A stretch of 64,000 bases of DNA, taken from Escherichia coli. GTDB lineage: Bacteria; Pseudomonadota; Gammaproteobacteria; Enterobacterales; Enterobacteriaceae. Below are positions 5,813-57,424 of the stretch, one piece after another; position 1 is the first letter of the stretch, and each line of letters begins with the position of its first letter. Location of the stretch: NCBI RefSeq assembly GCF_050920415.1, contig NZ_CP169309.1. One strand, 5' to 3'. The notes under the pieces were generated by a model that worked only from the letters and a program-made list of their open reading frames with translations, was not told the origin of the DNA and searched no databases. Both the position numbers and the translations under genes were made by a program.

Positions 5813-7891
5813 TTAAACCAATGCCGATTTATCAATCCCCAGTCGTTTCATCCGTGATAGCAGTGTGGTGCGTTTTAGTCCCAGACGTTGCGCCGCGCCT
5901 TTCGGCCCGGCAACCACGCCGTTAGTCTCTTTTAATACACGCACAATTAGCTGATATTCATCTTCGCCCTCCTGAGCGACGACCGTTGCAGTCGGCGGCG
6001 TTTTAGGTTCCGGTAAAGCAATATCAGGCAATGACAGCTGCAGCACGTTGCCACGTGTCAGCAATACCGCGCGCTCAATGACGTTTTCCAGCTCGCGTAC
6101 ATTACCTGGCCACTCCATATTGCTCAACGCGCGCAATGTTTCGGCAGGAATGCTGTCGATATTACGCCCCAGACGGCGGGCAATTTTAAAAGTAAAGGCT
6201 TTCGCCAGCAGCGGAATATCTTCCGGACGCTCGCGTAGTGGCGGCAGGTGGATCGGGAATACGTTCAGACGGTAATAGAGATCGCTACGGAACTCGCGGT
6301 CGGCAACCATTTTTTTCAGATCGCGGTTAGTCGCGGCAATTAAACGCACGTCCGTCTGTATAATTTTATTACTGCCGAGACGTTCAAACTCCTGTTCCTG
6401 TAATACACGCAGCAACTTCGGTTGTAACTCCAGCGGCATATCACCCACTTCATCGAGGAACAGGGAGCTTTTATCCGCCAGTTCAAAACGACCGATACGC
6501 TGGGCGCTGGCTCCGGTAAACGCACCACGCTCATGGCCAAACAGATCGCTTTCCAACAATCCGGCAGGCATCGCCGCGCAGTTCATTTTTACCATGCGGC
6601 GATTATTACGCCCACTGAGATTATGGATCGCGCGGGCAATCAGCTCTTTACCAGTGCCAGTTTCACCGAGGATCAGAACTGTACTGTCACTTTGTGCCAC
6701 CATTTCAACTTGTTTAAGCACGCTGTACATGGCTTCACTGCGACCAATAATCTCGCCAAATTCACTATCAACATTGTTGAGCTGCTCGGTCAGGGCGAGA
6801 TTTTCATCAACCAGTCGTTCTTTCAGACGATGAATTTCCTGATAGGCAAGGGCGTTATCGACAGCGATTGCCACACGTTCGGCAATCTGGCGCAGTAAAT
6901 TCAGATTGGTCGTGGTAAACACTTTCTCTTCGCATTGCGCCAGTTTCAGCACGCCCAGCATGGTGTCGCCAGACATCAGCGGTAACAGGCACAAGGTTTG
7001 AATCTGGTTGCCCCAGGTGTCGAACAACATGCGTTCGTAGGGGGCTAAATTATCTCGCTCGTGGAGATTAATCAGCAGCATCTCTTTGCTTTTAAACACG
7101 CGTTCGGTGAGGGTTCCTGCTTCATCGACTTCGCTCTGTTCGTGAGCGGGATGCTGTTTATCAAGATAGTGAGTGGAGTAGATGTTGAGTTTGTTTTTAC
7201 GGTGGCTGCGTAAGACGATGCTGATATCGTCAATGTCGAAATAGTAATGGATTTCTTTGGCGACTTCGCTGACCAGTTCGTCCATATCCAGGCGAGAAAG
7301 CACCGCGTTGGTGATGGCAACCAGGATGCGGAAGTTATCGCGTTCCCGGCATAACAACTCATAGTCGACATTATTGACGACGCGGCTCTGGATTTGTTCG
7401 GTGACGACAGAAATGATCTGCGTAAAAGTTTGCAGGCGATTGAACTCTTTTTCACTCCACGGGCGATCGTCATAACGAATAAATTCACAGCCACCAAAAA
7501 TATGCCCTTCCGCCGCCAGTGGCATCAGGCAATAGTGACCAAATTTGGGGTATAGCCCACCAGCGGCCAGCTGCGGCCAGGTTTCACAAAATTCTTCGTA
7601 ACTGCAATGCAGTGTATCAGGGCGCGACAAAATGCTGCGCACCGGACCGTGTGCCAGAACAGTTTCGTCTTCATAATTTATGGGGGTGTCTTTTTCACGC
7701 GACGCGTAATAAGACGCACGTTGAGTATGCGCTTGCCACAACACAATAGCTGCATTGTCGGCGAGCGCAGAACGCTTTACCAATTGCGAAAGAGCCTCAC
7801 ACAGCGAGGCCAGATCGGGCTGCTGCAATAGTGTCCGAGTGATGTCGAACAACCCTTGTTGTCCGAGATCACTCATCGGTGTATATGACAT
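5813..7891 (-). CDS. fhlA: Formate hydrogenlyase transcriptional activator, sigma54-dependent enhancer-binding protein
   Basis: ORF 5813..7927 trimmed to the MSYTPMSDLGQQ start (692 aa); AAA+ sigma54 activator motifs GETGTGKE and GAFTGA; C-terminal HTH. Confidence 0.93.
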   Translation of the reverse strand: MSYTPMSDLGQQGLFDITRTLLQQPDLASLCEALSQLVKRSALADNAAIVLWQAHTQRASYYASREKDTPINYEDETVLAHGPVRSILSRPDTLHCSYEEFCETWPQLAAGGLYPKFGHYCLMPLAAEGHIFGGCEFIRYDDRPWSEKEFNRLQTFTQIISVVTEQIQSRVVNNVDYELLCRERDNFRILVAITNAVLSRLDMDELVSEVAKEIHYYFDIDDISIVLRSHRKNKLNIYSTHYLDKQHPAHEQSEVDEAGTLTERVFKSKEMLLINLHERDNLAPYERMLFDTWGNQIQTLCLLPLMSGDTMLGVLKLAQCEEKVFTTTNLNLLRQIAERVAIAVDNALAYQEIHRLKERLVDENLALTEQLNNVDSEFGEIIGRSEAMYSVLKQVEMVAQSDSTVLILGETGTGKELIARAIHNLSGRNNRRMVKMNCAAMPAGLLESDLFGHERGAFTGASAQRIGRFELADKSSLFLDEVGDMPLELQPKLLRVLQEQEFERLGSNKIIQTDVRLIAATNRDLKKMVADREFRSDLYYRLNVFPIHLPPLRERPEDIPLLAKAFTFKIARRLGRNIDSIPAETLRALSNMEWPGNVRELENVIERAVLLTRGNVLQLSLPDIALPEPKTPPTATVVAQEGEDEYQLIVRVLKETNGVVAGPKGAAQRLGLKRTTLLSRMKRLGIDKSALV

Positions 7892-7964
7892 TTTGTTCTT
7901 CCAGGAAAGCACCGCAAAGCGGTGCAAAAGGTCATTGACTAAATATAGGAGATTTAGAATTTTA

Positions 7965-8975
7965 TTAGCATATACGCGGAAGCGGTTCGGCGTGTGGTAA
8001 ATCGAGGGTTCGTTTCACGCCATACAGACCGGCAAGACGAACACCTTTACGTTCCACCACTTCACCAATCAGCGCCGCGTCTTTCCCCAGTGGATGGGAA
8101 TGTAACGCCGCCAGCACTTGCTCTGCTGCGTTGCGTTCAACGGCGATCACCAGTTTGCCTTCGTTGGCAAAGTTAAGGGCGTCCAGCCCCAGCAGTTCGC
8201 AAACGCCGCGCACGGCAGGTTTAACCGGCAGTGCCGCTTCTGAAATTTCAATACCACAACCGCAGGCTGCCGCGAACTCATGAACTACCGCGTTCACTCC
8301 ACCACGGGTGGCGTCACGCAGTGCCTTCACACCGGGAATATCACGCAGCGTCTGGATGAGCGGCGTCAGCACTGCGCAGTCGCTGACCAGTTCGCCATCC
8401 AGCCCCAGTTGCTCGCGCAGATTAAGAATAGTTGCTCCGTGGTCGCCGAGAGTTCCACTCACCAGCAGAACATCGCCTGCGGTTAGCGTCTGTGCGCCCC
8501 AGTGAATATTCGCCGGGATCGCGCCCATGCCAGCGGTGTTGATAAACAGTTTATCTGCCGCGCCGCGTTGCACCACTTTAGTGTCGCCAGTAACGATGGC
8601 AATGCCTGCCGCGCGGGCGGTTTCTGCCATGCTGGTCACCACGGCTTTTAGCGTCTCCATCGGCAATCCCTCTTCGAGGATAAAGCCACAAGAGAGATAG
8701 CGCGGAATAGCGCCACTGACCGCAACGTCATTCGCGGTGCCACAAATCGCCAGCTTGCCAATATTGCCACCAGGAAAGAACAGCGGGTCGATGACGTAGC
8801 TGTCGGTGGAGAACGCCAGCCGGTCGCCTTCTGCCACCAGCTGCGCCAGCTCAAGGCGCGCCTGGTCTTCCTGTTCTGCCAGCCACGGATTGGCAAAAGC
8901 TTCCATAAACAGGCTGTTGATTAATTGCTGCATCGCCTGGCCGCCGCTGCCGTGGGCGAGTTGGATATTATTCAC
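7965..8975 (-). CDS. hypE: [NiFe]-hydrogenase maturation protein HypE (carbamoyl dehydratase)
   Basis: 336-aa ORF; AIR-synthase-like fold; C-terminal PRIC. Confidence 0.95.
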   Translation of the reverse strand: MNNIQLAHGSGGQAMQQLINSLFMEAFANPWLAEQEDQARLELAQLVAEGDRLAFSTDSYVIDPLFFPGGNIGKLAICGTANDVAVSGAIPRYLSCGFILEEGLPMETLKAVVTSMAETARAAGIAIVTGDTKVVQRGAADKLFINTAGMGAIPANIHWGAQTLTAGDVLLVSGTLGDHGATILNLREQLGLDGELVSDCAVLTPLIQTLRDIPGVKALRDATRGGVNAVVHEFAAACGCGIEISEAALPVKPAVRGVCELLGLDALNFANEGKLVIAVERNAAEQVLAALHSHPLGKDAALIGEVVERKGVRLAGLYGVKRTLDLPHAEPLPRIC

Positions 8976-10093
8976 GCTTCACTCTCCTGCTGACGATACT
9001 GATACCACGCGGCGCATGCTCCTTCGGAGGAAACCATCAGCGCGCCAAACGCGGTTTGAGGATTACAGGTGTTACCAAACAGCGGGCATTGATGCGGCTT
9101 ACATTTGCCCGTCAATACTTCGCCACAACGTGCGCGCGGGTCATCGCAAACCTGCTGCGGTGCCGGGCGGAAATGCGCTTCGGCGTCAAATCGTTGATAG
9201 TCTGGCGTCAGGTGTACACCAGAAGATTCAATCACGCCTAAGCCGCGCCATTCGCTGTCGCCGTTGACGCAGAAGACATCCGCAATCGCCTGTTGCGCCA
9301 GCAGGTTACCGGCATCCGGCACCACGCGCCGATACTGATTTTCTACCTTGCTGTGGGCCGCTATTTTCTGCTCCACCAGCATGACCACGCCTTGTAGTAG
9401 ATCAAGCGGTTCGAATCCAGCAATCACCAGAGGACGATGAAAATCACTGGCGATAAAATTATAGGCGTCGGTGCCGATAACCATACTGACGTGACCCGGC
9501 GCGAGGAACGCATCGATACCGTTATCCGGCTGTTCCAGCAAACTGCGTAGCGTTGGGATCAGCGTAATATGCTGGCAGAAAAAGTAAAAATTTTGCACAT
9601 CGCGGGCTTTCGCCTGTTGCAGAGTGATGGCCGTCGTCGGCATGGTGGTTTCAAACCCTAAGCCGAAGAACACCACTTTACGAGTTGGATTCTCCTGCGC
9701 CAGTTTCAACGCATCCATTGGCGAGTAAACGATGCGAACATCGGCACCGCGCGCTTTTGCCTGTAACAGCGACCCCTGTTTCCCCGGCACGCGCATGGCG
9801 TCTCCAAAGGTACAGAAGATGACTTCCGGATGGCTGGCAATCTCCACGCAGGTGTCGATTCTTCCCATCGGCAGTACACATACCGGGCAACCCGGACCGT
9901 GGATAAACTCAACGTTTTCCGGCAGTAACTGGTCGAGGCCGAATTTAAAAATGGCGTGGGTATGACCGCCGCACACTTCCATAATCCGCAGAGGGCGTTC
10001 AGCGGTGTAAGAGAGATGTGAAGCACGTTCGCGCAGATGCTCAATTAACTGCATCACCTGTTCCGGCGCGCGATATTCATCAACAAAACGCAT
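8972..10093 (-). CDS. hypD: [NiFe]-hydrogenase maturation Fe-S protein HypD
   Basis: 373-aa ORF; conserved CGxH and GPGCPVC motifs; 4-bp overlap with hypE. Confidence 0.95.
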   Translation of the reverse strand: MRFVDEYRAPEQVMQLIEHLRERASHLSYTAERPLRIMEVCGGHTHAIFKFGLDQLLPENVEFIHGPGCPVCVLPMGRIDTCVEIASHPEVIFCTFGDAMRVPGKQGSLLQAKARGADVRIVYSPMDALKLAQENPTRKVVFFGLGFETTMPTTAITLQQAKARDVQNFYFFCQHITLIPTLRSLLEQPDNGIDAFLAPGHVSMVIGTDAYNFIASDFHRPLVIAGFEPLDLLQGVVMLVEQKIAAHSKVENQYRRVVPDAGNLLAQQAIADVFCVNGDSEWRGLGVIESSGVHLTPDYQRFDAEAHFRPAPQQVCDDPRARCGEVLTGKCKPHQCPLFGNTCNPQTAFGALMVSSEGACAAWYQYRQQESEA

Positions 10094-19823: not shown

Positions 19824-20135
19824 ATGCACATCATTTCTAAAGCGCCATTTGAAGAGTCTGCGCGTAAATATCCTAACGACGCTCTGGCTCTACACTCATT
19901 GTATCGGGTTATTAAGGAAACGGATTTTTCTACGCCAGAAGAAATGCGAACGGCGTTTCCCAACCTCGACAATTTTAAATATCGCAATAAATGGTACGTT
20001 CTGGATGTAGGCGGGAACAATCTTAGGGTTATTGCCTACATAAACTTTGTTAATAAGCGGTTCTTTGTGAAGCACATAACGAATCATGCCGAGTATGACA
20101 AACTGACACGTTACTACAGAGAGAACAAAGAATGA
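19824..20135 (+). CDS. HigB-family type II toxin (RelE/ParE-superfamily mRNA interferase), accessory gene
   Basis: 103-aa ORF; FPNLDNFKY...VGGNNLRVIAY...HITNHAEYD pattern resembles HigB as I recall it; AAGGAAG Shine-Dalgarno; toxin-first order; 4-bp ATGA overlap with the downstream antitoxin. Confidence 0.75.
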   Translation: MHIISKAPFEESARKYPNDALALHSLYRVIKETDFSTPEEMRTAFPNLDNFKYRNKWYVLDVGGNNLRVIAYINFVNKRFFVKHITNHAEYDKLTRYYRENKE

Positions 20136-20551
20136 CTGCTAATGCTGCACGCGCTGTTAAAGCAACAAGAGAACTGGTCAATGCAGTCCCCTTTCTGGGA
20201 GGCAGTGACTCAGAAGATGATTATCGTGAAGCACTGGAACTGGTCGAATATTTGATTGAAGAAGATGACACCAATCCACTTATCGACTTTCTGGCGAGCC
20301 GTATTGCAGAATATGAAAACAACCACGAAAAGTTTGCAGAGTTCGATAAAGCCGTTGCAGCAATGCCGATTGGCGTGGCGTTACTTCGCACGCTGATTGA
20401 TCAACATAATCTGACCTATGCGGATTTGAAGAACGAAATCGGCTCTAAATCCCTGGTCAGTCAGATTTTGTCTGGACAAAGATCCCTGACGATATCCCAC
20501 ATTAAGGCACTTTCAGCCCGATTTGGCGTTAAGCCGGAATGGTTTCTTTGA
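20132..20551 (+). CDS. HigA-family antitoxin with C-terminal XRE-type helix-turn-helix
   Basis: 139-aa ORF; C-terminal SKSLVSQILSGQRSLTISHIKALSARFGV HTH; start overlaps toxin stop. Confidence 0.75.
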   Translation: MTANAARAVKATRELVNAVPFLGGSDSEDDYREALELVEYLIEEDDTNPLIDFLASRIAEYENNHEKFAEFDKAVAAMPIGVALLRTLIDQHNLTYADLKNEIGSKSLVSQILSGQRSLTISHIKALSARFGVKPEWFL

Positions 20552-39515: not shown

Positions 39516-40656
<1,141 letters not shown>

Positions 40657-44716: not shown

Positions 44717-44809
44717 GGTGAGGTGGCCGAGAGGCTGAAGGCGCTCCCCTGCTAAGGGAGTATGCGGTCAAAAGCTGCATCCGGGGTTCGAATCCCCGCC
44801 TCACCGCCA
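44717..44809 (+). tRNA. serV: tRNA-Ser (anticodon GCU)
   Basis: 93-nt cloverleaf GGTGAGGTGGCCGAG...CGCCTCACCGCCA, long variable arm, anticodon loop CTGCTAA, encoded CCA. Confidence 0.95.
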
Positions 44810-44812
44810 TTT

Positions 44813-44889
44813 GCATCCGTAGCTCAGCTGGATAGAGTACTCGGCTACGAACCGAGCGGTCGGAGGTTCGAATCCTCCCGGATGCACCA
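44813..44889 (+). tRNA. argV: tRNA-Arg (anticodon ACG)
   Basis: 77 nt GCATCCGTAGCTCAGCTGGATAGAGTACTCGGCTACGAACCGAGCGGTCGGAGGTTCGAATCCTCCCGGATGCACCA. Confidence 0.95.
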
Positions 44890-45088
44890 TATTCTACGAA
44901 ATCTTCAGCGATGAAGGTGTCGAAGAGGTGGCGGTACTAACTGCAAGCACCAGGGAGGATAACGTTGCTTTAGCAACGGCCCGAAGGGCGAGCCGTAAGG
45001 CGAGTAATCCTCCCGGATGCACCATCTCTTACTTGATACGGCTTTAGTAGCGGTATCAAAAAATCTGCAGTAAAGTAAGTTTCCCGAT

Positions 45089-45165
45089 GCATCCGTAGCT
45101 CAGCTGGATAGAGTACTCGGCTACGAACCGAGCGGTCGGAGGTTCGAATCCTCCCGGATGCACCA
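45089..45165 (+). tRNA. argY: tRNA-Arg (anticodon ACG)
   Basis: Identical 77-nt sequence to the first copy. Confidence 0.95.
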
Positions 45166-45362
45166 TATTCTACGAAATCTTCAGCGATGAAGGTGTCGAA
45201 GAGGTGGCGGTACTAACCGCAAGCACCAGGGAGGATAACGTTGCTTTAGCAACGGCCCGAAGGGCGAGCCGTAAGGCGAGTAATCCTCCCGGATGCACCA
45301 TCTCTTACTTGATACGGCTTTAGTAGCGATATCGATATCAGCAGTAAAATAAATTTCCCGAT

Positions 45363-45439
45363 GCATCCGTAGCTCAGCTGGATAGAGTACTCGGCTACGA
45401 ACCGAGCGGTCGGAGGTTCGAATCCTCCCGGATGCACCA
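45363..45439 (+). tRNA. argZ: tRNA-Arg (anticodon ACG)
   Basis: Identical 77-nt sequence. Confidence 0.95.
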
Positions 45440-45637
45440 TATTCTCCGAAATCTTCAGCAATGAAGATATCGAAGAGGTAGCGGAATTAACCGCAGGCAC
45501 CAGGAGGGATAACGTTGCGCCAGCAACGGCCCGAAGGGCGAGCCGCAAGGCGAGTAATCCTCCCGGATGCACCATCTCTTACTTGATATGGCTTTAGTAG
45601 CGGTATCAATATCAGCAGTAAAGTAAGTTCTCCCGAT

Positions 45638-45714
45638 GCATCCGTAGCTCAGCTGGATAGAGTACTCGGCTACGAACCGAGCGGTCGGAGGTTCGAATCC
45701 TCCCGGATGCACCA
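45638..45714 (+). tRNA. argQ: tRNA-Arg (anticodon ACG)
   Basis: Identical 77-nt sequence. Confidence 0.95.
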
Positions 45715-48623: not shown

Positions 48624-48696
48624 AAAAAGGCCACTCGTGAGTGGCCAAAATTTCATCTCTGAATTCAGGGATGATGATAACAAATGCGCGTCTTTC
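48624..48696 (-). ncRNA. micA: MicA (SraD) small RNA, sigmaE-dependent, Hfq-binding
   Basis: Minus-strand sequence GAAAGACGCGCATTTGTTATCATCATCCCTGAATTCAGAGATGAAATTTTGGCCACTCACGAGTGGCCTTTTT matches MicA as I recall it, including the terminal hairpin plus U-tract. Confidence 0.9.
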
Positions 48697-49280: not shown

Positions 49281-49293
49281 TCAATTGAAGAGG

Positions 49294-49324
49294 CCGGGCA
49301 GGTGATATCACCGCCCGGTTTTTA
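49294..49324. terminator. Strong near-palindromic hairpin (CCGGGCAGGTGATATCACCGCCCGG) plus T-run; luxS terminator, directly abutting the stop codon of the accessory HD/kinase gene on the opposite strand
   Basis: 25-nt near-perfect palindrome followed by TTTTTATT. Confidence 0.8.
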
Positions 49325-50437
49325 TTACCTGTCAGTCACCCGATATTCCACGCTATGTGCTTCATCAGGTTGAGGAACTTCCAGCCTTGAGGCCATCCGC
49401 ATCACGACCGCTTCAGGAACGGCATACTCGCGCCTGGCATTTTGCTGCTTCCATTGCGCCCACGGTACTTCCAGATAAACGATTTTTACTCGTGCACCGT
49501 AAGCCGTAAACAGACTGATGAGCTGGCTACGCAACTGGCGGGTAATGTTCGTTGCATTCCAGATGAACGGCTTCTTCTGGCGTAAAAAAACGCGCGCTTC
49601 TTCTTTTGCCTGTTGCACAATACGCCCGGTGGCGGTTTTGTCGTCCGGACTGGCATTGATTCGCCGCCGCATATCATCAAGGCTGATAACGTTCACTCTC
49701 TGGCACTGTTCACTGATAAAGCGATCTTTGCCCATACCCGGTAAACCACACAGCAAAATAACCTCAAAAGATTCAGCCTCCCAGGGAACAAAATCAGGAG
49801 AACTTTGTTCATGGGTCAGGTAATGCCAGCGTGCGGAATCCGAAGCGAATGAACGCACTTTTCCCCAGCATTGTTGCTCCTGGCAAAATAGCTCGAACAG
49901 ATCGATGCGTTCCAGCATTGATTGCTGATCATGACAATGGCGACCAAGCAGATCGGCACGAGCAAGCAAAGCGAGCAGACGCGTGTCGATACGCATTGCA
50001 GCCGTGAGCAGCAAACGCTCCGGTTCCGGACGTTCCAGTAACCATAGCGGTAACCCATGCAGACGCACCAGTGCAACAATTTGCTCGCGTAGCACGAACG
50101 GCGTCGGGATATCGCGCCATAAAATTTGTCGGGCCGTCAATTCACCCCGACGAGCATGACCAGGAGACTGAATACGTCCGTTTTCCTGCACGGTAGTACT
50201 GCGCTTTTCAACGTCATGCAATAACGCCGCCGCCCATAAAATTTCCTGCTGCTGAGCGGGGAGTTGCTGAAACTCAGCCATCGCAACGAGTGCGTTCAGC
50301 ACCATTTCAGTATGCACACCAACGTCGCCTTCACCATGATGCTCCGGGTCTTGCGGCGTGTTATGCATATCCTCAACCCAGCTAAAACGCTGGCGTAGCG
50401 TCGACCAGCGTTTGTCGTCGGTAAGTTGCCAAATCAT
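49325..50437 (-). CDS. HD-domain phosphohydrolase fused to P-loop polynucleotide-kinase-like domain; putative RNA end-healing enzyme, accessory gene
   Basis: 370-aa ORF; HD motif (H..., LLHDVEK around residues 33-80); Walker A GLPGMGKD (res 231-238) and Walker-B-like VISLDD; ATGA start/stop overlap with the upstream ligase gene. Confidence 0.7.
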
Positions 50438-51141
50438 GACTGTTCTCCATAAGCGAACTCATGGGCCATCCGCGCCCGTCGCCAGTGGCGTTTCCAGTGC
50501 TCGGTGGTTTTGACATGATTTTTGCGTACATACTTGAAGACGTTATGCGAAAAGTCAGCGACGGAAAACGCATCACTATTCCGGCTGACAATGCCTTCCA
50601 GCGTACAGGGTTGCCCGGTTTGCGTATCCCAGGGATCGAACGCGCCGCGCGCATTGGTCAGCGCCAGAAAATCACGTTGCCAGCTTTTTTCATCATTCCC
50701 CGGCTGCGGGCCGGAGATTTCGGGAACGCAGGGGAAATCAAACAGAGCGGCGTAAAACTGCACCTCTTCCCAGCTCAGCCACATATCCTGGCAGCGAACG
50801 GCAAACAGATAAAAATCCTGCTCCAGGGCGCGATATTCAATCGAATGAACGGCATAAAGATTTTCACCAAACAACTCCAGATCGCCGAGATCGTTTTTCA
50901 GCAGTTGCCAGCGTTGGCGAATTTTATAGGTCCATGCCGATTGTGTAGGCGCGGCATGGGAACGGGCAAACACGCCGTAGCGGTTAAGGCAGTTATTTTC
51001 ACCGTCGAGTTTTTCTGTGTGCACCAATTGCGTGATGGCCTGTAAATCCTGCCAGTAATCGGTGTTAATACGGTCATCGCTGGTGGTGCCAGGGGAGAAA
51101 GGATAATGCCAGGTTCTCCCGTATTTACGTTGGGTATTCAT
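50434..51141 (-). CDS. ATP-dependent RNA-ligase-family protein (covalent nucleotidyltransferase), accessory gene
   Basis: 235-aa ORF; motif I KLDGEN (Lys44), motif III-like FGENLYAV, motif IV EGIVSR, motif V FKYVRK. Confidence 0.7.
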
Positions 51142-51361
51142 AATAATCCATTATTTTTTGTGTAATAAACGTACGCCCGCGAGGGTGCGAGTTATGGGGT
51201 TAAAAAAAATGTGAGTATCACCCGCGAAAGCGAGGGCGAAGAAAAAAGAGAGTTAACAACCTGAGCGAATGCTCAGAACCGGTTAATGGTGAATGGAAGA
51301 GTTTGGGGCGGCGAAAAGATACACCGTTTGAGATGATAAAACAACCGTTTACAGAATGAGC

Positions 51362-51389
51362 AAATAAAAAGGGAGCCGCAGCTCCCTTT
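51362..51389 (-). terminator. Rho-independent terminator after emrB
   Basis: Minus-strand GGGAGC-tgcg-GCTCCC hairpin followed by TTTTTATTT. Confidence 0.8.
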
Positions 51390-51396
51390 GACAACC

Positions 51397-52935
51397 TTAG
51401 TGCGCACCGCCTCCGCCGCCACCTGCGCCAAATGGCGGTTTAGCAAACCACACCAGCCCCAGCAGGACGAGGAATATCCCGGCTGACATCCAGAAGATCT
51501 CATTGGCGGAAATAATCAGCCCCTGATTGGTGATCTGCTGGGCAATCCAGCCTGATGCCTGTTGTTGCGTCATCCCCAGCCCTTCCAGTTGGCTGTACAT
51601 CGCCTGAGCGTTCGGGTTAAACGGGTTTACCGACTCGGTTAACTGTGCGTGGTGCATCGACTCGCGGTTAGTCCACATGGTGGTGGTGATGGATGTGCCG
51701 ATAGACCCCGCCAGCGTTCGCGTAAAGTTAGAGAGGCTCGATGCCGCCGCCAGTCGTTCCGGTGGCAAACCAGACAGCGTAATGGTGGTCAGCGGCATAA
51801 AGAAGCAGGCCACTGCGAAGCCCTGGATAAACTGCGGCCAGGCCGACGCACCAAAATCCATACCCGGTTCAAAGGTATAGGCACGCCAGTAGAAGCAGAC
51901 GGCATACATAATAAAGCTGAAGGTTACCAGCCGCCGCATATCCAGTTTATGCGCGAAGCGGCCGATAATCGGCGACAGGATCACCGGAATAATCCCTACC
52001 GGCGCAGAGGCCAAACCTGCCCAGGTCGCCGTGTAACCGTAGACCTCCTGCAACAACTGCGGCAGCAGAACAATCGCGCCGAAGTAGAGCATATACGCGA
52101 GGCTGATACACAAGCAGCCGATGGTGAAGTTGCGCGACTTAAACAACGACAGATCGACTATCGGGTTATCGTCGGTCAGCTCCCAGACAATCAGGAAGCA
52201 GATAGCCACCACCGCCACCACGGTGAGGATGATTATTTCCTGCGATGAGAACCAGTCCAGCTCTTTACCGCGGTCGAGCATAATCTGCAGGCTGCCGATA
52301 CCAATCACCAGCAGTGCCAGCCCCACGGCATCAATCCGCCGCCGTTCGGTGCGGGTTTCGCGTCCGCGCAGGGTTTGCAGTGTCATCAACACCACCGCCA
52401 CGCCAATCGGCACGTTGATGAAGAATATCCAGCCCCAGTGGTAATTATCGCTGATATAACCGCCGAGGATCGGGCCGCAAATTGGCGCGACAATCACCGT
52501 CATCGACCACAACGCCAGCGCGATCGAGCGTTTTGCTGGCGGGTAGTTATTCAGCAATAGACTTTGCGAAAGCGGGATCAACGGCCCGGCGACAATTCCC
52601 TGAATCACGCGGAAGAAGATCAGCATATTCAGGCTGCTGGAGACACCACACGCCCACGACGCAATAGCAAAGGCGATGGTCGACCAGAGGAACAGCTTCA
52701 CTTCCCCAACGCGCTTTGCCAGCCAGCCGGTAAGCGGGATCGAGATGGCATTCGCCACCCCGAAAGAAGTGATTACCCACGTTCCCTGGCTGAGCGATGA
52801 GCCCAGATTCCCGGCGATAGTGGGGATCGCCACGTTAGCAATGGTGGAGTCCAGCACCTGCATGAATGTCGCCAGTGACAGCGCAATCGTCATAATGACC
52901 AGTTGCGCGCCTTCCAGCGGTTTTTGCTGTTGCAT
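51397..52935 (-). CDS. emrB: Multidrug efflux MFS transporter EmrB (14-TMS DHA2 family)
   Basis: 512 aa from MQQQKPLEGAQLVIMTIALSLATF; C-terminal glycine run. Confidence 0.95.
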   Translation of the reverse strand: MQQQKPLEGAQLVIMTIALSLATFMQVLDSTIANVAIPTIAGNLGSSLSQGTWVITSFGVANAISIPLTGWLAKRVGEVKLFLWSTIAFAIASWACGVSSSLNMLIFFRVIQGIVAGPLIPLSQSLLLNNYPPAKRSIALALWSMTVIVAPICGPILGGYISDNYHWGWIFFINVPIGVAVVLMTLQTLRGRETRTERRRIDAVGLALLVIGIGSLQIMLDRGKELDWFSSQEIIILTVVAVVAICFLIVWELTDDNPIVDLSLFKSRNFTIGCLCISLAYMLYFGAIVLLPQLLQEVYGYTATWAGLASAPVGIIPVILSPIIGRFAHKLDMRRLVTFSFIMYAVCFYWRAYTFEPGMDFGASAWPQFIQGFAVACFFMPLTTITLSGLPPERLAAASSLSNFTRTLAGSIGTSITTTMWTNRESMHHAQLTESVNPFNPNAQAMYSQLEGLGMTQQQASGWIAQQITNQGLIISANEIFWMSAGIFLVLLGLVWFAKPPFGAGGGGGGAH

Positions 52936-57343: not shown

Positions 57344-57424
57344 GTAGACATGATAAGACGCGCCAGCGTCGCATCAGGCATTGTGTACAGAGCGGCGGAT
57401 GAGGCAAAAACGCCTTATCCGCCC
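57344..57424. repeat. REP-type palindromic elements (pair) between ygaY and proX
   Basis: GTAGACATGATAAGACGCGCCAGCGTCGCATCAGGCA and GCGGATGAGGCAAAAACGCCTTATCCGCCC. Confidence 0.7.

Follow-up and report, generated by a model that had tools for sequence, protein, structure and literature searches.

A chromosomal ligase and end-healing gene pair between emrB and luxS of Escherichia coli: a likely heal-and-seal system for broken RNA ends

The space between emrB and luxS on a 64,000-nucleotide stretch of the Escherichia coli chromosome (contig NZ_CP169309.1, assembly GCF_050920415.1; called the window below, with position 1 its first letter) holds two genes on the minus strand. One encodes LIG, a minimal ATP-dependent adenylyltransferase of the RNA-ligase type. 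The other encodes HD-Pnk, in which an HD phosphoesterase is fused to a polynucleotide 5'-kinase. This strain-variable two-gene operon is probably a system that heals and seals broken nucleic-acid ends, most likely those of RNA. The reading is carried by gene structure, domain and fold identity, conservation of catalytic residues, obligate pairing of the two genes and genomic context, all of which were observed here. A first-pass annotation of the window, made from its letters alone, had already described an RNA healing-and-sealing cassette at this site. Its observation was correct and its functional reading reasonable, and the interpretation is partly supported.

The architecture of the locus is simple. 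An open reading frame (ORF) scan finds two intact ORFs, both starting with ATG. LIG (235 amino acids) occupies 50434-51141 and HD-Pnk (370 amino acids) occupies 49325-50437, stop codon included. Four bases are common to both, an ATGA stop/start overlap at 50434-50437 that couples LIG to HD-Pnk. The ORF scan and the sequence itself bear out the exact coordinates that had been proposed for this arrangement. Elsewhere in the Enterobacteriaceae, tblastn places the matches to LIG and HD-Pnk end to end or no more than 9 bases apart. The gene names already in place in RefSeq are 'RNA ligase family protein' for LIG and 'AAA family ATPase' for HD-Pnk. Neither a Hen1 gene nor a metallophosphoesterase gene is present at the E. 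coli locus.

The operon is bounded by two structures, both of which fold as had been claimed. On the upstream side, the intrinsic terminator hairpin of emrB (51368-51389, minus strand, identified by folding) sets emrRAB apart from the LIG operon. On the downstream side, the convergent genes luxS and HD-Pnk meet at a palindrome (49289-49323) that lies between their two stop codons. On the plus strand it is the luxS terminator, folding at -23.8 kcal/mol (z -4.8) and followed by UUUUUAUUA. On the minus strand it forms a hairpin just past the HD-Pnk stop, at -19.7 kcal/mol. The first-pass annotation had stated that no genes lie between luxS and emrB in K-12, and this is so. In MG1655 they are convergent neighbours 63 bp apart. 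The corresponding segment of the window is 2112 bp (49284-51395), and the K-12 spacer shares only a few bases with it.

LIG was assigned to the ATP-dependent ligases from its motifs, and profile, alignment and fold all agree. It matches the Pfam family RNA_ligase (PF09414) at 5e-28 over residues 38-205. Every motif quoted for the pair is present, including KLDGEN with the Lys44 codon at 51010-51012. Motif I reads K44-L-D46-G47-E-N49, and K44, D46 and G47 are invariant in an alignment of 58 relatives that extends down to about 30% identity. The same holds for E93 of motif III, E182 and G183 of motif IV, and K203 of motif V. In classic ligases, motifs IV and V also serve steps after adenylylation. 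The two ends of the protein are conserved as well, with an N-terminal K-Y-x-R-T-x-H-x-P-x-S-P-G..D-D segment and a C-terminal H-V-x-T-x-x-H-W tail. The fold, predicted with high confidence, is nearest to the RNA ligases Rnl5, Rnl2, Rnl3 and REL1, not to DNA ligases. By sequence profile, the nearest solved structures in the PDB are marginal matches, at about E 1e-4. A PDB search with the LIG sequence alone returned hemocyanins. These are spurious, and it was the profile search that gave the weak true matches.

What does LIG lack? Its 235 residues hold a nucleotidyltransferase domain only. No accessory domain was found among those looked for, namely the C-terminal domains of Rnl1 and Rnl2, the N-terminal domain of Rnl5, the dimerisation domain of Rnl3 and an OB domain. 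Because the accessory domains that define Rnl1 to Rnl5 are missing, LIG is, as judged from its sequence, not a member of any of these families as defined. Rather, it is a distinct minimal branch of the RNA-ligase-like nucleotidyltransferases. This branch is widespread. An exhaustive search of 50%-identity representatives gives 1319 proteins at E < 0.001, and a clustered protein database gives 2157 matches, of which the Bacteroidota members are 62-67% identical to E. coli LIG. Three multidomain relatives (P0285, P0296 and P0373), presumably eukaryotic from their size and composition, join a LIG-type ligase to a second RNA-ligase domain and a P-loop kinase of the tRNA-ligase type. P0373 and P0285 additionally bear a 2H phosphoesterase domain, and P0285 also has a CX5R phosphatase-like motif. 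These proteins resemble 'Swiss-army-knife' RNA-repair architectures, that is, complete heal-and-seal enzymes.

HD-Pnk had been read as an HD phosphohydrolase joined to a P-loop kinase, and this assignment holds. The protein matches Pfam AAA_33 at 2.2e-31 and, weakly, HD at 0.0016. Among NCBIfam profiles it matches HDIG at 2.7e-5 and the kinase part of bacter_Pnkp at 2e-9, the latter over profile positions 8-137 of 851 only and at 36 bits against a cut-off of 750. The HD phosphoesterase domain spans approximately residues 1-210 (49808-50437, minus strand) and has H34, H42, H74-D75, H94, H127 and D162 as candidate metal ligands. The polynucleotide 5'-OH kinase domain spans approximately residues 224-370 (49328-49768, minus strand), with the P-loop G234-x-G236-K237-D238 and the catalytic residues D254, R257 and R336. 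The HD-type metal ligands and K237, D238, D254, R257 and R336 are invariant in an alignment of 26 sequences. An AlphaFold2 model of the protein (predicted local distance difference test score, pLDDT, 91.5) matches the polynucleotide kinases CthPnkp, T4 Pnk and Pnkp1, together with a structure of the tRNA-nucleotidyltransferase family.

One motif needs to be renamed. The VISLDD stretch of the kinase domain had been called Walker-B-like. It aligns with the S-S-D motif of the Clostridium thermocellum Pnkp kinase domain, contains the invariant D254 and has R257 nearby. We take it to be the catalytic Asp motif of polynucleotide kinases and not a usual Walker B. A separate observation concerns the HD motif. 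A cluster representative (P0126, a 94%-identical E. coli HD-Pnk standing for 2310 member sequences) reads LLHYVEK in place of LLHDVEK, a D75Y change. General inactivation of the HD motif in the common E. coli allele was considered but is not indicated, since the one complete genome checked with the 94%-identity allele (Ecol_AZ161) keeps LLHDVEK. The D75Y variant may be rare or an assembly error.

The two genes stay together in every related locus sampled. A scan of one genome per species, with an 11-sequence alignment as query, found relatives in 309 genomes, and the best 80 were taken as loci. They comprise 45 Enterobacterales and 35 Bacteroidota in 36 genera, with Runella and Deinococcus not among them. 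HD-Pnk lies directly downstream of LIG in all 80. The company that the pair keeps is also informative. Five Serratia loci (L017-L019, L021 and L022) and one Bacteroides locus (L081) show a co-oriented run, at about 6200-9800 in locus coordinates, made up of a release-factor-H-coupled rtcB (TIGR03073), prfH (TIGR03072, at 311 bits), LIG and HD-Pnk. A gene of the RtcB family occurs no more than 8 kb away in 14 of the 80 loci, and several Bacteroidota loci carry a WYL/WCX regulator and a weak Rsr/Ro-like protein near the pair. RtcB2-PrfH repairs and rescues ribosomes cut by colicin E3 (PMC9223846). These neighbours in other taxa point to an RNA-repair role and add independent support for it.

Some of the Bacteroidota loci are more elaborate. 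Five of them (L028, L039, L050, L052 and L053) contain RtcB, an AAA/FtsH-like protein of about 700 amino acids, unannotated proteins of 392 and 288 amino acids, LIG and HD-Pnk, along with a WYL-WCX-PhyH regulator and a weak Rsr/Ro-like vWA protein. In three of these five, a HigA-family antitoxin gene sits beside a small unannotated ORF. For the unnamed genes between rtcB and LIG in Bacteroidota, neither Pfam nor NCBIfam gives a match. LIG and HD-Pnk of E. coli both have matches among phage protein families. Membership in a known anti-phage defence system was considered and set aside, as no PADLOC model matches LIG or HD-Pnk.

Conservation at the locus extends beyond the coding sequence. About 225 nucleotides from the emrB terminator to the LIG ATG are conserved across genera of Enterobacteriaceae. 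This region contains a candidate sigma-70 promoter for the operon (51316-51344, minus strand), with a -35 element TTGTTT (51339-51344), a 17-bp spacer and a -10 element TATCTT (51316-51321). Its position is conserved across genera, and at the corresponding place Superficieibacter has TTGCAA, 17 bp and TATTAT. A consensus promoter scan of the LIG upstream region did not call the candidate because its -35 element is weak. SOS regulation was also considered. The 255 bp upstream of the operon contain no LexA box, and the known box of recA at 39518, which served as positive control, is found by the same search.

Between the candidate promoter and LIG lies a conserved 5' leader of about 170 nucleotides (51142-51309, minus strand). 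In an nhmmer search its only matches are in Enterobacteriaceae, between emrB and luxS and ahead of LIG (E 1e-20 to 1e-48), and no Rfam family matches the leader or any other part of the cassette at E up to 1. The leader fold has a z-score of -2.3. A hairpin at 51260-51277 is 98.9% paired, and three of its pairs are changed on both sides, that is, they covary. A second complementarity joins TCCATT (51292-51297), which resembles an anti-Shine-Dalgarno sequence, to AATGGA (51147-51152), which overlaps the ribosome-binding region. This candidate helix could mask the ribosome-binding region. It is 92% paired and shows no compensatory change, and because it is conserved without such changes it stays a hypothesis. 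As a whole, the leader is possibly a regulatory element of the operon that has not been described before.

How is the cassette distributed? It is found in 999 of 5426 complete E. coli genomes, as one chromosomal copy each and always at the emrB-luxS site, and in 998 of the 999 carriers the match covers 80% or more of the 1817-base coding span. A survey of the luxS-emrB junction across Enterobacteriaceae, which had been suggested as a check, finds the cassette at the same site in several genera. It lies between emrR-emrA-emrB and luxS-gshA in Escherichia, Salmonella, Citrobacter, Klebsiella spallanzanii, Kosakonia, Phytobacter, Superficieibacter and an Enterobacter species. In one Citrobacter locus a porin gene has been inserted, giving the order cassette, porin, luxS.

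The first-pass annotation called the cassette a strain-variable island. Strain-variable it is, but 'island' fits less well than loss. Insertion by a mobile element was considered and rejected. No direct or inverted repeats were found flanking the emrB-luxS segment, the whole K-12 spacer is replaced and not interrupted, and the same site is filled across genera. Because the site is shared by these genera and flanking repeats are absent, the cassette looks like an old resident of the locus that has often been lost, K-12 included, and not like a recent island. The junctions themselves (window 49281-49345 and 51355-51400) were compared with those of K-12 and Salmonella. The empty spacer of K-12 has an emrB terminator (GCCAGTTC..GAACTGGC) like that of cassette-bearing Salmonella. 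Cassette-bearing E. coli, Klebsiella, Kosakonia and Phytobacter have a different emrB hairpin, AAGGGAnC..GnTCCCTT.

Could the E. coli cassette be a decaying remnant that has no current function? This is very improbable. It is true that 82% of complete genomes do not have the cassette and that damaged copies exist. LIG is annotated as frameshifted in JCM 5491 (L087), where the match is 10 bases shorter, as it also is in NCTC9022 and UPEC_U013. A deletion in Ecol_542 (L088) truncates LIG and fuses its remnant to a major facilitator superfamily transporter gene, with emrRAB gone. However, neither ORF is broken in the window or in the common allele, no catalytic residue has been lost, nearly all carriers have most of the coding span, and promoter and leader are conserved across genera. 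The comparison of two E. coli alleles argues the same way. Between the window and a genome with the 94%-identity allele, the cassette DNA is 94-95% identical and the flanking genes 96.6-97.5%. Codon changes are synonymous in 38 cases and non-synonymous in 22 for HD-Pnk, and 22 against 9 for LIG. From these counts, a rough estimate of the ratio of non-synonymous to synonymous rates (dN/dS) is about 0.15-0.2. Since synonymous changes outnumber non-synonymous ones and none of the differences hits an invariant residue in either protein, LIG and HD-Pnk are, by this measure, under purifying selection.

The way in which the two proteins would work together can be sketched as follows. A transesterifying ribonuclease, such as a ribotoxin, a toxin-antitoxin RNase or an anticodon nuclease, would leave 2',3'-cyclic-phosphate and 5'-OH ends. 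The HD domain of HD-Pnk would strip the cyclic phosphate or the monophosphate to give a 3'-OH, and its P-loop domain would phosphorylate the 5'-OH. LIG, charged with AMP on Lys44, would then pass the AMP to the 5'-phosphate and join the ends. Three elements of this scheme we infer, namely the joining of the ends, the choice of RNA as natural substrate and the trigger in the cell. The first-pass annotation had likened the cassette to tRNA repair by phage T4 Pnkp and Rnl1. The heal-and-seal logic of that parallel is supported, but the sealing half has to contend with two homologues that become adenylylated and joined nothing tested.

These homologues head the points that weigh against a heal-and-seal system for RNA. 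DRB0100 of Deinococcus radiodurans forms the ligase-AMP intermediate, but joined no DNA or RNA tested, either alone or with its operon partners (PMC1997131). LIG of Runella slithyformis also makes enzyme-AMP, but, again alone or with operon partners, ligated none of the tested 3'-OH/5'-PO4 DNA or RNA substrates (PMC6097658). Because LIG is without a nucleic-acid-binding module and the two homologues failed on simple substrates, it probably needs either its coupled partner HD-Pnk or a specific folded RNA target (the tRNA anticodon loop, or rRNA in the ribosome) for substrate recognition. No RNA-repair genes neighbour the cassette in E. coli itself. Its absence from most complete E. coli genomes, the damaged copies in a few strains and the lack of any matching anti-phage defence model in PADLOC also count on this side. 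The last objections concern DNA. The Deinococcus operon is induced by radiation and loss of its HD-Pnk sensitises cells to ionising radiation, which points to DNA damage (PMC6300522). In addition, a title in the reference list of PMC6097658 calls Runella HD-Pnk a DNA/RNA end-healing enzyme.

This last group of observations is also the case for a different role, in which HD-Pnk would clean the 3'-phosphate and 5'-OH DNA ends left by oxidative or radiation damage and LIG would seal DNA, possibly with an accessory factor. Besides the induction of DRB0100-DRB0099-DRB0098 by irradiation and the sensitivity of the DRB0098 mutant (PMC6300522, PMC1997131), it can draw on the phosphorylation of DNA 5'-OH ends by DRB0098 (PMC1997131) and on the DNA half of the Runella title. 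Such a role is nevertheless unlikely for the E. coli cassette. DRB0100 did not ligate DNA (PMC1997131), and both the fold and the Pfam family of LIG are closest to RNA ligases. The recurrent neighbours are RNA-repair genes (rtcB, prfH and the WYL regulator) and not DNA-repair genes, and the upstream region has no LexA box. Perhaps LIG does not join strands at all. Its final product might be an adenylylated 5'-phosphate end, or some other phosphorylated molecule that has received AMP, as a protective or signalling cap, with HD-Pnk supplying the 5'-phosphate acceptor. Alternatively, LIG might need an unusual end, such as the 2'-phosphate used by fungal Trl1. The behaviour of the two homologues on standard substrates is what this idea would predict (PMC1997131, PMC6097658), a bare nucleotidyltransferase domain with neither OB nor C-terminal domain would suit it, and the linkage of the Runella cassette to a Tpt1 2'-phosphotransferase and a HIT-domain protein (PMC6097658) is in keeping with it. 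Even so, it is quite improbable. Motifs IV and V, which serve the later steps in classic ligases, are invariant in LIG, the relatives in which a kinase and a 2H phosphoesterase are joined to the ligase look like complete heal-and-seal enzymes, and the negative results in vitro may reflect a missing partner or the wrong substrate.

The heal-and-seal reading for RNA is therefore preferred, and one elaboration of it deserves mention, even though it is a long shot. What if LIG and HD-Pnk are a second line of repair for the translation apparatus, dealing with RNA ends that RtcB cannot join? These could be ends that have already had their cyclic phosphate opened or removed, or rRNA embedded in the ribosome. 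In Enterobacteriaceae, expression would be gated by the leader of about 170 nucleotides, a structured element that would mask the ribosome-binding site until translation or RNA damage is sensed. If true, this would explain both the operon linkage with rtcB-prfH in Serratia and Bacteroides and the failure of the naked ligase on simple oligonucleotides.

Whatever its exact target, the cassette allows an orphan ligase to be studied in genetically tractable E. coli, with the rtcB-prfH linkage and the leader as leads. About one-fifth of complete E. coli genomes hold it at a fixed site beside natural non-carriers, which is a convenient setting in which to find out what the minimal ligase joins. The linkage and the conserved leader also suggest conditions under which to look, namely ribosome damage of the colicin E3 type and toxin-antitoxin RNases.

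A few other features of the window can be recorded here. A HigB-family toxin and helix-turn-helix antitoxin pair is annotated in the identical RefSeq strain between hycI and ascB (window about 19824-20551, plus strand). HigB-family toxins are ribosome-dependent mRNA endonucleases, and this module lies about 30 kb away from the cassette. The small RNA MicA (48625-48696, minus strand), between luxS and gshA, is an Rfam match at gathering level. So is naRNA4 (CssrE; 57347-57424, minus strand), at 63.5 bits just over the threshold of 59.5. Five Rfam tRNA matches downstream of csrA (44717-45711, plus strand) fall on genes that are annotated in the identical strain as one tRNA-Ser and four tRNA-Arg.

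How does the cassette relate to known systems? It belongs to the published LIG/HD-Pnk family and is not a new kind of system. The E. coli pair is placed in this family by its architecture, its motifs and its close relatives, which come from the same bacterial orders as the described examples. The repair cluster of R. slithyformis contains such a cassette (Munir and Shuman, J Bacteriol 2017, as described in PMC6097658), with the ORF of a small putative ATP-dependent ligase directly upstream of HD-Pnk and overlapping it (PMC6097658). End-healing has been shown for Runella HD-Pnk, the study in question being represented in PMC6097658 by its title in the reference list. The E. coli pair shares the N-terminal HD phosphoesterase and C-terminal P-loop 5'-OH kinase in one polypeptide, as well as the small overlapping ligase ORF upstream. 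Compared with the E. coli proteins, those of Cytophagales and Chitinophagales relatives show 62-67% identity for the ligase and 50-59% for HD-Pnk. The surroundings are different. In contrast to Runella, with its adjacent Tpt1 and methyltransferase-HIT genes, E. coli has a bare two-gene unit downstream of emrRAB, and its locus has its own leader, conserved only within Enterobacteriaceae.

The D. radiodurans operon is a second described example. It consists of DRB0100 (LigB/DdrP, an adenylylation-domain-only ligase), DRB0099 (PARG) and DRB0098 (HD plus kinase, with 5'-kinase activity), and DRB0100 is adenylylated on K40 (PMC1997131). The operon is also discussed in PMC11833690. The likeness to E. 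coli is a minimal adenylylation-domain-only ligase upstream of an HD-plus-kinase protein. Two fragments of DRB0100 deduced from primers, the N-terminal M-R-V-K-Y-P and V-V-T-E-K40-L-D-G (PMC1997131), fit the motifs of LIG and their spacing, as fragments and not as a full alignment. The difference is that the Deinococcus operon is radiation-induced and has the PARG/macro gene DRB0099 between the two, whereas E. coli has neither a middle gene nor an SOS box.

The remaining comparisons are with systems that solve a similar problem by other means. T4 Pnkp/Rnl1 is analogous in its heal-and-seal logic, but the E. coli pair is not a member. In T4 the kinase is N-terminal to a DxDxT (HAD-type) 3'-phosphatase, whereas the E. 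coli phosphatase is an HD domain and is itself N-terminal, and Rnl1 has a C-terminal domain whereas LIG has none. The bacterial Pnkp/Hen1 and Pnkp1/Rnl/Hen1 systems rely on a binuclear metallophosphoesterase and on a ligase dependent on Hen1, and they add a 2'-O-methyl mark. The E. coli locus has neither Hen1 nor the metallophosphoesterase. Bacterial Pnkp further unites kinase, metallophosphoesterase and ligase in one protein, an arrangement that the E. coli pair does not have. RtcB and RtcB2-PrfH resemble LIG/HD-Pnk in that they repair ribotoxin-cut RNA, and they are physically linked to it in Serratia and one Bacteroides. The chemistry is nevertheless distinct. RtcB joins a 3'-phosphate to a 5'-OH directly with GTP, whereas LIG/HD-Pnk would first make a 3'-OH and a 5'-phosphate.

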